Assembly: GCA_031396695.1 (NCBI GenBank)
Contig: JANNLG010000056.1
Coordinates: 3,853-67,852, forward strand
Reading direction: 5' to 3'
DNA: 64,000 nt
Origin: Deltaproteobacteria bacterium
Lineage (GTDB): Bacteria > Myxococcota_A > UBA9160 > SZUA-336
Position numbers and translations under genes: made by a program. The stretch's first letter is position 1, and each line of letters begins with the position of its first letter. The notes under the pieces are model-generated. The model did not search any database. It was not told the DNA's origin and saw nothing but the letters and a program-made list of their open reading frames with translations. Positions 4,250-7,840 of the stretch are shown one piece after another.

Positions 4250-4330
4250 GCCCGGCAGCGCGCGACACGCCCGCCAACGACGCCGTCTTGCGCCTGGCTT
4301 GCTCAACTTCAGGCTGAGCGACCCCGATAG

Positions 4331-4379: not shown

Positions 4380-5393
4380 ATGAGTTCGAGCCACGATCCC
4401 GAGGCGGCCTCGGCCGAGACCTCGCGAGCGACCGTGCGCGTCGATCTGCCGGAGACATTCCAGGCGGAGATCCGCGGGCTCGCGCGCGCGCTGCCCGGGC
4501 TCGACTACTTCGCGATCCTCGGTGTGTCGCGCGCCGCGACCGCCGACGAGATCCGCGACGCGTTCTTCGAGCGCTCGAAGACTTTTCATCCCGACCGCTA
4601 TTTCAAGAAAGAGCTCGGTCCGTACGCGGGGCTCTTGACCGAGATCTACAAGCGCATCGTCGCCGCACACGACGTGCTGCGCGACACGAAGCTGCGCGCC
4701 AGCTACACGCGCACGCTCAGCGACACGACCAGCTCCGCGAAGCCGTCGCCGTTCGCGACGCGGCCGAAGCCCGCCGCGAAGCCCGCCGCCGCCACGCCCG
4801 GCGCGCGCGGCTCGTCGCTGCGCAACCGCTTGGGCCTGCAATCGCCCGGACTCGTGCTCGACTCGCTGCAGAAGCAGCTCGAGCAGAGCCGCGCGCGCGC
4901 CTGCAAGCACTTCGAAGCCGCGCTCGGCTACAAAGCCAGCGGCGACTGGGCGCGCGCCGCGCAGCTCGTGGAGCTCGCGCTCGCCTTCGACCCGCGCGAG
5001 AAGCAGTACCACGAGGAGCTCGCCGAGATCCTGCCGCGCGCGAACACCGATCGCGCCGCCGACGTGCGCCGCAAGGCCGAGCTGCTCCTGCACGGCGATC
5101 GCGCCGGCGCGGCGGAGCTGCTCGAAGAAGCCGCCCAGCTCATGCCGACCGACGCGGAGCTCGCGCACAAGCTCTCGAACCTGCTGCTGGCGATCGGCGG
5201 CGATCTCGCCAAGGCCGCGCTGTACGGCGAACGAGCGGTCGCGCTCGACGAGGACGATCTGCGCTTCCGCAAGGCGCTGGCTGCGGTCTACCGCCAGTCC
5301 GGCGAGCCGCAGAAGGCTCGCAAGCACCTGCAGCGCGCCTGGGAGCTCGATCCGCTGGACAAGGAGATCCGACTGGCCTTGCAGACACTGTGA
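4380..5393 (+). CDS. J-domain (DnaJ-like) protein with C-terminal TPR-like helical repeats
   Basis: J-domain DYFAILGVSRAATADEIRDAFFERSKTFHPDRY (HPD motif conserved). ATG at 4380 is preceded by GGAGG. A Pro/Ala-rich linker is followed by TPR-like repeats. Confidence 0.8.
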   Translation: MSSSHDPEAASAETSRATVRVDLPETFQAEIRGLARALPGLDYFAILGVSRAATADEIRDAFFERSKTFHPDRYFKKELGPYAGLLTEIYKRIVAAHDVLRDTKLRASYTRTLSDTTSSAKPSPFATRPKPAAKPAAATPGARGSSLRNRLGLQSPGLVLDSLQKQLEQSRARACKHFEAALGYKASGDWARAAQLVELALAFDPREKQYHEELAEILPRANTDRAADVRRKAELLLHGDRAGAAELLEEAAQLMPTDAELAHKLSNLLLAIGGDLAKAALYGERAVALDEDDLRFRKALAAVYRQSGEPQKARKHLQRAWELDPLDKEIRLALQTL

Positions 5394-5420
5394 GGTGTCG
5401 GCAGTCATGAGGGAAGGACG

Positions 5421-6998
5421 ATGAGTCGAGTAATCGGAATCGATCTGGGAACGACGAACTCGTGCGTGGCGATCCTCGAGGAGGGCCAGCCGGTCGTGAT
5501 CCCCAACACCGGTGGCTACAAGACGACTCCCTCGATCTTCGCGGTCACGGAAGAGGGCAAGCGGCTGGTCGGACATCTGGCCAAGCGCCAGGCCGTCACC
5601 AACGCGAAGAACACGGTCTATGCGGCGAAGCGCCTGATCGGCCGCTCGTTCGACTCGCCCGAGGTCGCGAGCTTCAAGTCGCTACTGCCCTACGAGCTGG
5701 CCGAGGGTCCGAACAACGACGTGCGCGTGCGCGTCGCCGGCCGCGTGTACACGATCCCGGAGATCTCCGGCATCGTGCTGCGCGAGATGAAGCGTGTCGC
5801 CGAGGAGTACCTGGGCGACACCGTGCAGCAGGCGGTCATCACCGTGCCCGCGTACTTCAACGACGCGCAGCGCCAGACCACGCGCGACGCGGGCCGCATC
5901 GCGGGCCTCGAGCTTCTGCGCATCATCAACGAGCCGACCGCGGCGGCGCTGGCCTACGGCTTCGGCCGCGACAAGACCGAGGTCGTGGCGGTCTACGATC
6001 TGGGAGGCGGCACCTTCGACGTCTCGATCCTGCAGATGGGCAAGGGCGTGATCGAGGTGCTCGCGACCAACGGCGACACGCAGCTCGGCGGCGAGGACTT
6101 CGACCGCCGCATCGTGCAGTTCCTGCTCTCGTCGTTCAAAGAGAAGGAAGGCCTCGACCTCGCCGGCGACACCATGGCGCTGCAGCGGCTGAAGGACGCT
6201 TCGGAGAAGGCGAAGTGCGACCTGTCGCAGGTCGCCTCCTCCGAGATCAACCTGCCGTTCATTGCCGCGGACGCGGAAGAGAACGCGCTGCACATGAGCG
6301 TGGTGCTCTCGCGCGAGCAGCTCGAGGAGCTCACGTCGGAGCTGGTCGAGCGCACGCGGGGCATCGTGCAGCGCGCGTTCGACGACGCGAACGTCAGCGC
6401 GGCGCAGATCGACCAGGTGCTCCTGGTCGGCGGCCAGACGCGCATGCCGCTGGTGCAGCGCTTCGTCGCACAGCTGTTCGGAAAGACGCCGCACAAGGGC
6501 GTGAATCCCGACGAGGTCGTGGCGGTCGGCGCGGCAATCCAGGCCGCGATGCTCTCCGAGGAGAAGGAAGGCCCGCTGCTCGTCGACGTCACGCCGCTGT
6601 CGCTCGGCATCGCGACCTTCGGCGGTCACTTCGCGCGCTTGATCGACCGCAACACCACCGTGCCGACCTCGCGCCAGGAGATCTTCACCACCACGCGCGA
6701 CAACCAGACGGCCGTGAAGATCCGCGTGTTGCAGGGCGAGAGCGAGCGCGCCGACGACAACGATCTGCTCGGCGAGTTCGTGCTGGCGGGAATCCCGCAG
6801 GGCCCGAAGGGCGGACCCGAGATCGAGGTCACGTTCGACATCGACGCGAACGGCATCGTCTCGGTCTCGGCGCGCGATCTGGCGACCGGGCGCGCGCAGT
6901 CGATCCAAGTCAATCCGCGCGGCACGCTCTCGCCCGAGGAGATCGAGCGGCTGGCGAGACAGTACGACCAAGGCAACGAGGTGGCGGTCAAAGGCTAG
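5421..6998 (+). CDS. Hsp70-family chaperone (DnaK paralogue) lacking the C-terminal alpha-helical lid
   Basis: [25 protein letters not shown] and [13 protein letters not shown] Hsp70 nucleotide-binding-domain signatures, with a substrate-binding beta domain. The protein ends about 110 aa short of canonical DnaK (525 aa). ATG is preceded by GGGAAGGA. Confidence 0.85.
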
Positions 6999-7001
6999 GG
7001 T

Positions 7002-7700
7002 TTGGGCGATTCACGACACGATGAAGTGACGCGCTTGCTGAAGCGAGGGCTCAACCACTACGGGTTGGGCGATCTCGAAGGGGCGATTGCGTGCTGGGAA
7101 CAGGCGCGCGCGCTCGACCCCGAGAACCAGGCCGTGCACGACTACCTCGAGACCGCCTACGAGGAGAACGGTGGCGCGCGCAAGAAGGCCGCGCCGCCTC
7201 GCGTCGCCGCCAAGCCCGCCAGCGGATTCCCGCCGCCGCGCGAGAAGAAGCCCGCGCCGGGCAAGATCGTCACCGACGACGACGACACGCCCAAGAGCGG
7301 CCCGATCATCGAGTTCGAGGCCGAAGACGATCCCGACACGCAGCTCCAGCTCGCCCTGCAGTCCTACAAAGAAGGGCGTTACGACGACGCCTGGCGCGAG
7401 CTGAACGAGGTCGCGAAGACGCAGCCGGGCCGGCTCGACGTGCAGGGCTACCTGCAGCTGGTGCGCACCGAACGCGCGCAGACCTGGGCCAAGGAGATCG
7501 GCGATCAGGGCCGCGTGTTGAAGCGCAAGATCACGACCGCGCAGATCATGCAGCTCAAGCTCAAGCCCGACGAGGGCTTCATGCTCGCGCAGATCGACGG
7601 CCGGCTGTCGATCGCCGACCTGATCAGCCTGTCCACCTCCGATCGCGTGCGCACGCTCGAAGTCATCGCCAAGCTGCTCAGGGACGAGATCGTCGAGTAG
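7002..7700 (+). CDS. TPR-like protein with Pro/Lys/Asp-rich linker and a conserved C-terminal module (..FMLAQIDGRLSIADLISLSTSDRVRTLEVIAKLL..)
   Basis: Starts 3 nt after the Hsp70 stop (TTG 7002 or a nearby GTG). N-terminal TPR-like helices. The C-terminal roughly 60 aa look like a conserved domain of unknown function. Confidence 0.6.
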   Translation: MGDSRHDEVTRLLKRGLNHYGLGDLEGAIACWEQARALDPENQAVHDYLETAYEENGGARKKAAPPRVAAKPASGFPPPREKKPAPGKIVTDDDDTPKSGPIIEFEAEDDPDTQLQLALQSYKEGRYDDAWRELNEVAKTQPGRLDVQGYLQLVRTERAQTWAKEIGDQGRVLKRKITTAQIMQLKLKPDEGFMLAQIDGRLSIADLISLSTSDRVRTLEVIAKLLRDEIVE

Positions 7701-7716: not shown

Positions 7717-7738
7717 CGGCGCGCGGACGTCCGCGCGC
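7717..7738. terminator. Perfect 22-nt palindrome GGCGCGCGGACGTCCGCGCGCC between convergent genes
   Basis: Self-complementary over its entire length. It lies between the TPR gene stop (7700) and the ABC1 kinase stop (7841). There is no U-tract, so it may be a bidirectional terminator or an RNA/processing hairpin. Confidence 0.4.
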
Positions 7739-7840
7739 CACCCGAACTACGTTCGCCTTCGGCTCGCTGCGCGGCGCGCGCTTCGCGCGCACCTTGCTCG
7801 GAGTGCTGCGGATGCCGTCGTCGGACGTGTGTTGCTACGC

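Follow-up and report, generated by a model that had tools for sequence, protein, structure and literature searches.

Three co-directional genes on the forward strand of a 64-kb stretch of DNA, the whole of which is referred to here as the window, probably encode a vertically inherited, dedicated Hsp70 system. Its members would be an Hsp70 derived from DnaK whose helical lid was lost a single time, a class C co-chaperone (J-domain/TPR) dedicated to this Hsp70, and an accessory protein with TPRs and a winged helix (gene 3). The gene set itself is real and is conserved among related uncultured myxobacteria. The three open reading frames lay at the positions where the first-pass annotation had placed them, and each had a GC3 of the coding type (0.88–0.93).

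Anatomy and descent of the lidless Hsp70

The second gene (5421–6998, forward strand) encoded a protein of 525 amino acids that was identified as a lidless DnaK-type Hsp70 by Pfam HSP70, NCBIfam DnaK and an alignment to E. coli DnaK. It was composed of a nucleotide-binding domain (NBD; residues ~1–380), the linker GPLLVD (384–389), a beta-basket (390–503) and a helix A stub with a tail ending in EVAVKG (504–525). The Pfam match covered profile positions 1–516 of 599 and the match to NCBIfam NF001413 covered positions 1–513 of 625. The protein aligned to residues 1–522 of E. coli DnaK, and its C-terminal end corresponded to approximately DnaK residue 529, at the helix A/B junction, which agreed with the earlier reading of a 525 amino acid Hsp70 without a lid. 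Both the helical lid (SBD-alpha, helices B–E) and the disordered C-terminal tail of canonical DnaK were missing. The score with NF001413 was 771 bits (cut-off 648) and that with TIGR02350 was 749 bits (cut-off 822.55); the HscA score was 548 bits, compared to 771 bits for DnaK.

A lid encoded in another frame, or a full-length DnaK in a grpE/dnaJ context, had been envisaged in the first-pass annotation as the alternative. A tblastn search of the whole window with the lids of six canonical DnaKs returned only noise, with a lid in no frame. Canonical DnaK works with GrpE and a class A DnaJ, the genes of which often lie beside it; neither grpE, a class A dnaJ nor a second Hsp70 gene was present within the 64 kb. 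The position of the stop codon was identical in every Hsp70 orthologue compared. Of the 56 complete orthologues recovered at related loci in MAGs and metagenomes, 54 were 522–531 amino acids long and the remaining two (514 and 540 amino acids) both contained frameshifts; the best 120 database homologues (68–98% identity) were almost all 519–529 amino acids long. An annotation or sequencing artefact, or a merely coincidental adjacency of gene 3, is refuted by these lengths, by the conserved stop and by the lid search, and was given next to no credence. Gene 3 does lie in the frame of the Hsp70 gene, with only a stop codon and one more codon in between; however, the stop was conserved in all orthologues, the frame of one gene relative to the other varied by locus, gene 3 was TPR-like and not lid-like, and its homologues were free-standing proteins of 220–250 amino acids. 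A fusion of the Hsp70 to gene 3 by stop-codon read-through was also considered, and was ruled out as the in-frame relation was not conserved among loci.

The loss of the lid in this family is real and old. In a neighbour-joining tree the Hsp70s of these loci were monophyletic (20/20 tips), and the closest full-length DnaKs shared just 55–59% identity with the lidless protein. A search of 50%-identity representatives, which was used to obtain outgroups, clustered the lidless family with canonical DnaKs and did not isolate it. Other, independent short Hsp70s were also seen among these representatives.

Conservation was as high in the beta-basket (mean column identity 0.91) and the linker (0.92) as in the NBD (0.89). 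Thirteen of the positions inspected were invariant in 53/53 sequences (K70, R167, N170, E171, T173, T199, L390, L391, D393, I401, Q433, V436 and I438). The catalytic residues of canonical DnaK that were checked, the J-interface, the hydrophobic core of the linker and the substrate pocket of the beta-basket were all retained. Family-specific changes (M404F/Y, A429T, E430R and R467K) were grouped around the substrate arch and lid latch. The C-terminal tail was conserved within both lineages of the family, as EVAVKG in the close lineage and YEVQLK(x) in the distant one, and an EEVD motif was found at the C-terminus in neither. The Hsp70s were ~90% identical between loci whose ArgF proteins were ~79% identical. 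On these alignments, the function of the Hsp70 is under strong purifying selection.

This pattern bears on whether the protein is instead an Hsp110-like regulator or nucleotide-exchange partner of a canonical DnaK that binds no clients itself, a role that has lately been put forward, in a general form, for the DnaK 'derivates' of bacteria (PMC13580251). In line with such a role, Myxococcales derivates have shortened or deleted lids and many derivates have been argued to have lost canonical function (PMC13580251); the three-gene cluster also contained no nucleotide-exchange factor gene, GrpE-like genes included. Against it, the linker core (L390, L391 and D393), the J-interface and the substrate pocket were invariant, unlike in Hsp110 and most derivates, the beta-basket was as conserved as the NBD, and the Hsp70 was always paired with its own HPD-intact J-protein. 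We therefore regard an Hsp110-like role as unlikely.

The J-domain/TPR protein and gene 3

The first gene (4380–5393, forward strand), which is preceded by the ribosome-binding site GGAGG upstream of its ATG, encoded a class C J-domain co-chaperone of 337 amino acids. A J-domain (residues 42–109) was followed by a proline-rich linker with a conserved SLRxRLGL motif and by a TPR domain (~165–337). The J-domain carried the motif HPDRY, with HPD at residues 70–72, and H70, P71 and D72 were invariant in 11 diverse orthologues. Pfam matches were to DnaJ (2.9e-11) and, at 274–334, to TPR_2, TPR_14 and TPR_19; neither DnaJ_C nor the zinc finger was matched. As had been noted at first pass, TPRs thus replace the zinc finger and C-terminal domain of DnaJ. 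With an HPD-containing J-domain, TPRs and no Pfam families other than DnaJ and TPR, the protein has the class C (type III) DnaJ-TPR architecture, which is among the 12 commonest of J-domain proteins (PMC10410713). Most of the TPR domain was missing from the J-proteins of two loci, L013 and L014.

Gene 3 (7002–7700, forward strand) started with TTG 3 nt past the stop codon of the Hsp70 gene, with which it was in frame; orthologues supported this start, having ATG, GTG or TTG at the equivalent position. Its product of 232 amino acids (Pfam TPR_2, 1.3e-8) consisted of a TPR unit (residues 1–58), a Pro/Lys/Asp-rich linker predicted to be disordered (59–108), a TPR-like unit (109–166), an EIGDQGR motif and a winged-helix module (170–232), so that every part that the first-pass annotation had described was present. 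In an AF2 model the folded parts had a pLDDT of ~90 and residues 59–108 one of <50, and each TPR unit contained three helices, equal to 1.5 repeats. The clamp-like residues K14 and N18 were not kept in the distant lineage. In total, 278 homologues of 220–250 amino acids were found, and the names attached to them came from Myxococcota MAGs only. A genome scan with gene 3 likewise returned MAGs only.

The C-terminal module of ~60 amino acids (7509–7697, forward strand; ..DEGFMLAQIDGRLSIADLISLSTSDRVRTLEVIAKLLRDEIVE) had no Pfam family and adopted a winged-helix fold, for which the best structural matches were protein- or peptide-binding winged helices. In the distant lineage, the J-protein carried a homologous module at its N-terminus (hhalign 97.5%). 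That module was present on the J-protein in 33/33 distant loci and absent from it in the close lineage, where the winged-helix module was always on gene 3; its carrier is thus the J-protein or gene 3, or occasionally both. The homology ties gene 3 functionally to the J-protein. Of the two roles offered at first pass, client or adaptor, the second is favoured and that of a client is less likely.

A small winged helix could also belong to a transcription factor that regulates its own operon and is titrated by the chaperone, as HspR is in the dnaK operon of actinobacteria. Such a function of gene 3 is nevertheless improbable: besides the protein- and peptide-binding character of its best structural matches, the module appears from its residues to be net acidic and to stop directly behind helix 3, which leaves hardly any wing, and the homologous module of the J-protein has what would be an acidic third helix. 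The small winged-helix fold is common to the module, to PqqD-like RiPP recognition elements and to NPRL2/NPRL3, all of the latter being peptide or protein binders; as the module had no Pfam match and no RiPP or GATOR context, the likeness to either group is one of fold only.

Conservation of the locus and its non-coding elements

The three genes adjoined arginine genes in an uncultured Myxococcota lineage, in the order xerC-hslVU-argB-argF-J-Hsp70. This core, syntenic arrangement was stable and vertically inherited over deep divergence. Gene order was conserved over 97 related loci. Wherever the contig allowed, the J gene was directly upstream of the Hsp70 gene, and gene 3 followed the Hsp70 gene in 36/36 loci of the close lineage and 10/15 of the distant one, with a gap of 1–9 nt. 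In the other five distant loci gene 3 was not next to the Hsp70 gene, so it is either not obligatory or encoded elsewhere. The first-pass description of a purpose-built triad gained real support from the order in 97 loci, the tight spacing and the shared module.

The locus is part of the chromosomal core amid housekeeping genes and is no defence island. An Hsp70-containing anti-phage or conflict system had nothing in its favour beyond an unusual Hsp70 with repeat-protein partners; PADLOC, which holds protein models of defence systems, matched none of the three proteins, the synteny was stable and vertical and an effector domain was absent, which makes such a system highly improbable. Links of such Hsp70/J pairs to motility and development come from the M. 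xanthus paralogues SglK and StkA (MXAN_6671 and MXAN_3474), SglK having a grpS-sglK context. The first-pass annotation had extended this link to the present genes, for which no evidence was found: the Hsp70 scored as DnaK-type and its context was one of housekeeping arginine genes.

The same core context, together with the ~90% Hsp70 identity compared to ~79% for ArgF and a score above the NF001413 equivalog cut-off, would suit a general housekeeping DnaK of a lineage that dispenses with the lid, its neighbours being ordinary co-chaperones. However, even the closest full-length DnaKs were only 55–59% identical, the cluster lacked GrpE and class A DnaJ, and in published surveys derivates occur only in genomes that also hold a bona fide DnaK (PMC13580251). 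Furthermore, in one sequence (P0318) a canonical Polyangia-type DnaK half was fused to a lidless N-terminal half. It looks like an assembly chimera, which suggests that canonical and lidless Hsp70s exist in the same community. A search with its canonical half found no contig shared with the locus, ERZ accessions being per metagenome and not per MAG. On balance a housekeeping role is quite unlikely, and a dedicated system is preferred.

Ahead of the tightly clustered and conserved genes lies a promoter-like motif that is itself conserved. This bipartite motif in the argF-J intergenic region (4303–4329, forward strand) reads TCAACTT (4303–4309)-N12-CCCCGATA (4322–4329). It stood out in an otherwise variable alignment and had identical spacing in 46 related loci, all of the close lineage. 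A sigma-70 promoter scan gave no match, either there or elsewhere; an ECF-like AAC core and a sigma-32-like CCCC..AT box suggest that the motif may be recognised by an alternative sigma factor. Rfam had no match in the window or the leader region. Downstream of gene 3, between convergent genes, a GC-rich perfect hairpin with a 9-bp stem was read from the sequence (7718–7739, forward strand; region MFE −28.8 kcal/mol, z −1.9 by RNA folding). It was not called by a consensus terminator scan, which had no relevant match, and is a possible terminator without a T-run.

Proposed mode of action and known Hsp70 systems

In the dedicated system proposed here, the J-domain would trigger ATP hydrolysis on the lidless Hsp70, the open basket of which would bind and release faster and could hold on to parts of partners that are folded or bulky. 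The co-chaperones, instead of lid closure, would confer specificity, with gene 3 acting as a putative adaptor in trans. By analogy, we infer that the TPR and winged-helix domains may serve target or client selection or localisation, and that the conserved tail (EVAVKG or YEVQLK) may be a peptide that serves docking or auto-inhibition.

The docking of TPR co-chaperones on the C-termini of Hsp70s is commonly seen as a eukaryotic trait. DNAJC3/p58IPK and DNAJC7 are eukaryotic DnaJ-TPR proteins, and the TPRs of Hop and CHIP dock on Hsp70 C-termini. The window system is not of the EEVD-clamp type of Hop and CHIP, as EEVD was absent, the TPR units of gene 3 were of 1.5 repeats where that type has three, and K14 and N18 were not kept in the distant lineage; any TPR-tail docking in it is hypothetical. 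A 'split' Hsp70, in which lid-like capping and client selection are provided in trans by the TPR/winged-helix proteins docked on the C-terminal EVxVK tail, is a doubtful though conceivable extension. If true, it would be a bacterial counterpart of the eukaryotic docking, and the winged-helix module would represent a new adaptor domain family of Hsp70 systems.

The Myxococcales are already known to possess DnaK derivates in which the lid is shortened or deleted, M. xanthus MXAN_2747 among them (Pan et al. 2021, PMC8265645; FEBS J 2026, PMC13580251). MXAN_2747 is non-essential and upregulated during development, and strains lacking it show reduced sporulation and oxidative resistance (PMC8265645, PMC13580251). 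Compared by description, these derivates and the window Hsp70 share the annotation 'molecular chaperone DnaK', an intact NBD, a missing or much shortened SBD-alpha and the lack of a C-terminal tail. However, the papers covered mention no J/TPR partner, winged-helix accessory or conserved tail, and the coordinates of MXAN_2744 and MXAN_2748 indicate no argB-argF context, unlike the window locus. A literature search for natural bacterial 'lidless' Hsp70s returned engineered variants only, and the review by Mayer (2021) mentions neither lidless forms nor TPR partners. Lid-deleted Myxococcales derivates and DnaJ-TPR architectures are already known, whereas the triad and the winged-helix module were not found in the literature searched.

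Reviews of how bacterial Hsp70s evolved pose two questions about the many DnaK derivates of complex bacteria, namely what their function is and whether they still operate as J-driven chaperones (PMC13580251). The present family is a clean test case, as a natural deletion of the lid is combined with all the parts of a J-stimulated cycle kept under strong selection, and its partners are known, since adjacent genes encode the cognate J-protein and an adaptor. Characterisation would show how an Hsp70 functions without a lid in vivo, and would establish the winged helix as a new adaptor domain of J-protein systems.

In E. coli, HscC with DjlC/DjlB and HscA with HscB are specialised short-lid Hsp70s for which a dedicated class C J-protein supplies specificity. 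The window system resembles them in pairing a specialised bacterial Hsp70 with its own class C J-protein, but its lid is absent and not shortened as in HscC and HscA, the Hsp70 is much closer to DnaK than to HscA, and its partners carry TPRs and a winged helix where the known pairs have the HscB C-domain or a membrane anchor. Lidless DnaKs engineered in the laboratory exchange substrate faster and are less active as chaperones. Two of them (1–507 and 2–538) are cut nearly where the window Hsp70 ends (~DnaK 529), whereas the window protein is natural, is under strong purifying selection and has family-specific changes at its substrate arch. The comparison with HscC/DjlC also draws on PMC13580251.

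Genomic context of the triad

GC3 analysis of the window (G+C content of approximately 70%) revealed a run of plus-strand genes, in which trmFO (138 bp–1478 bp), xerC/D (1478 bp–2377 bp), argB (2389 bp–3324 bp) and argF (3281 bp–4249 bp) preceded the triad. The first gene of the triad (4380 bp–5393 bp, plus strand) encoded a 337 aa J-protein with a J-domain containing HPDRY and C-terminal TPRs, to which neither a zinc finger nor DnaJ_C was matched. The second (5421 bp–6998 bp, plus strand) encoded a 525 aa Hsp70 that matched positions 1–516 of the 599 positions of the Pfam HSP70 profile. It could be aligned to E. coli DnaK between residues 1 and 522 and ended at approximately DnaK residue 529, which is the helix A/B junction. 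The third gene (7002 bp–7700 bp, plus strand) started 3 nt past the Hsp70 stop codon and encoded a 232 aa protein in which a TPR and a linker of variable sequence precede a conserved C-terminus. The ORFs, domains and truncation point were all as described in the first-pass annotation. Within the otherwise variable Pro-rich linker of the J-protein there was a conserved motif, SLRxRLGL (residues ~146–153), which resembles a DnaK-binding peptide in having a hydrophobic core flanked by arginines and could, speculatively, act as a pseudo-substrate.

The spacer between argF and the J gene was variable except for a conserved motif, TCAACTT-N12-CCCCGATA, at 4303 bp–4329 bp. This motif was present at fixed spacing in 46 related loci, all of the close lineage (whose J-proteins share ≥40% identity with the one in the window); in the distant lineage (J-protein ~30–35% and Hsp70 ~67–71% identical), the same pattern gave no match. 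A sigma-70 promoter scan showed that it is not sigma-70-like, and we infer that it may be an alternative-sigma promoter. After the third gene, the sequence and RNA folding showed a perfect GC hairpin (7718 bp–7739 bp).

An ABC1/UbiB-type kinase gene (7841 bp–9145 bp, minus strand) was convergent to the triad. Beyond it were genes for a BNR/Ycf48-like protein (9393 bp–10,865 bp) and an MMPL transporter, the longest ORF of which (10,751 bp–14,056 bp) overlapped the former by ~115 nt (10,751 bp–10,865 bp); the true MMPL start is probably downstream of the first possible start codon. An 1834 aa ORF followed (14,121 bp–19,625 bp, plus strand) with a coding-type GC3 of 0.89 and no Pfam match at E ≤ 1e-5. 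The remaining examined part of the window encoded housekeeping functions, e.g. purN, aspS, hisS and a response regulator with GGDEF. PADLOC gave no match for any of the three proteins, and no Rfam element was found in the window or the leader region. The triad locus is core chromosome and not an island.

The gene order argB-argF-J-Hsp70 was common to all related loci, and in the longer ones xerC-hslV-hslU was found upstream. Wherever a related locus extended far enough, hslV and hslU (~1.9 kb) separated xerC from argB; this was also true of L001, which is 92–98% identical to the window at the protein level. In the window, hslVU was found neither at this junction (2375 bp–2455 bp), where only an 81 nt spacer bearing a short inverted repeat (TTGTGCGG...CCGCACAA) was left, nor elsewhere in the 64 kb.

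Loss of the Hsp70 lid

The first-pass annotation had considered that a lid might be encoded in another frame; the lid sequences of six canonical DnaKs matched no frame of the window. A genome scan with the third gene as query identified 15 related loci, all in Myxococcota MAGs, and a metagenome scan with the J-protein identified 80 further loci; all of the related sequences were from uncultured organisms. The 56 complete Hsp70 ORFs in these loci were 522–531 aa long, save two that were frameshifted (514 aa and 540 aa). The best 120 database homologues (68–98% identity), labelled 'molecular chaperone DnaK', were nearly all 519–529 aa. When placed in a neighbour-joining tree alongside 147 representative Hsp70s, the proteins from these loci grouped as one clade free of outsiders. 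The truncation is real and ancient.

The closest outgroup was a 731 aa Myxococcota 'DnaK' (P0123), also without a canonical lid. In the closest outgroup Hsp70s, namely this protein, P0125 (817 aa) and P0140 (683 aa), the HSP70 profile match ended at ~501–529 of 599 and was followed by 180–290 aa of Pro/Ser-rich and helical sequence with no Pfam match; the lid appears to have been replaced rather than deleted. Further natural short Hsp70s of ~500–536 aa, ending just past the beta-basket, were also present (P0139, P0158, P0195, P0197, P0258 and others), and one cluster had 15 members, all exactly 530 aa, on contigs of up to 356 kb. The neighbours of the short clusters in the tree were different full-length DnaKs, which suggests repeated lid loss in bacteria; these clusters look like independent losses.

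The Hsp70 scored 771 bits against the NCBIfam DnaK equivalog NF001413, above its cut-off of 648, but 749 against TIGR02350, a model that includes the lid, below its cut-off of 822. Mean column identity among 15 orthologues was 0.89 in the NBD, 0.92 in the linker and 0.91 in the beta-basket. Invariant in all 53 family members were K70, E171 and T199, together with R167, N170 and T173 at the J-interface, L390, L391 and D393 in the linker and I401, Q433, V436 and I438 in the pocket. Substitutions specific to and fixed in this family affected the substrate arch (M404F/Y, A429T and E430R) and the former partner of the lid latch (R467K). The C-terminal tail was also conserved; it read ..(D/E)EVAVKG in close-lineage proteins and ..ELYEVQLKx in those of the distant lineage. 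By these sequence features, the protein still has the appearance of a functional Hsp70 that binds substrate and is driven by a J-protein.

Conservation of the triad and a shared winged-helix module

The co-occurrence analysis proposed in the first-pass annotation showed the J-Hsp70 pair in all loci. In the close lineage, where the J-protein had no N-terminal extension, the third gene followed Hsp70 in 36/36 loci with room for it, after a gap of 1–9 nt. In the distant lineage the J-protein carried an extra N-terminal module (33/33 loci), and a divergent third gene (26–37% identity) followed Hsp70 in 10 of 15 loci. The J-proteins of L013 (4797 bp–5420 bp) and L014 (4782 bp–5423 bp), the most divergent pair of close-lineage loci, were only 207–213 aa long; they kept the J-domain and first TPR-like helices, the rest of the TPR domain being absent, and the J gene overlapped the Hsp70 start by 4 nt.

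An AF2 model of the third protein showed three helices, a disordered stretch (59–108) and three further helices, followed by a compact winged-helix domain (170–232, pLDDT ~90) that belonged to no Pfam family. An HMM built only from the C-termini of this protein matched the N-terminus of 34/34 distant-type J-proteins at the same place, and a profile-profile comparison of the two modules gave 97.5% probability (E 7e-12, 62 columns). They are therefore one domain, carried either on the J-protein or on the third protein, and such sharing is classic evidence for the two acting together.

Proposed mechanism and known relatives

The best-supported reading, that the triad is a dedicated Hsp70 machine, draws on its conservation, on the preservation of catalytic, J-interface and pocket residues and on the winged-helix module that the J-protein and the third protein have in common. 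The J-domain would drive ATP hydrolysis, and the TPR and winged-helix domains would choose the target, with the third protein as a trans adaptor. Lack of the lid would allow faster substrate exchange and the holding of bulky or folded partners, as expected from engineered lidless DnaK. The Hsp70 tail may be a docking or self-binding peptide. A link to motility or development had also been suggested; nothing in the tests run here points to either.

[quoted passage not shown] 2021, PMC8265645). M. xanthus and A. dehalogenans are reported to encode DnaK derivates whose lids are shortened or deleted and whose function is unknown (2026 review, PMC13580251), and DnaJ-TPR is one of the twelve most common J-protein architectures (PMC10410713), so proteins of this kind were already known. 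The literature searched did not describe this lidless Hsp70 family, with its deep conservation and its J/TPR partner, nor its TPR/winged-helix accessory protein, nor the module that the accessory protein and the J-protein have in common.

One 646 aa Hsp70 (P0318; 6001 bp–7941 bp of locus L098) closely matched the lidless family over its N-terminal ~345 aa, and its C-terminal half, lid included, was canonical DnaK sequence with its highest similarity to Polyangia. This gene, which ended 94 nt before the contig did, is probably a chimera created by assembly, with the join at the conserved VLLVGG stretch, and hints that both paralogues were present in the same community.
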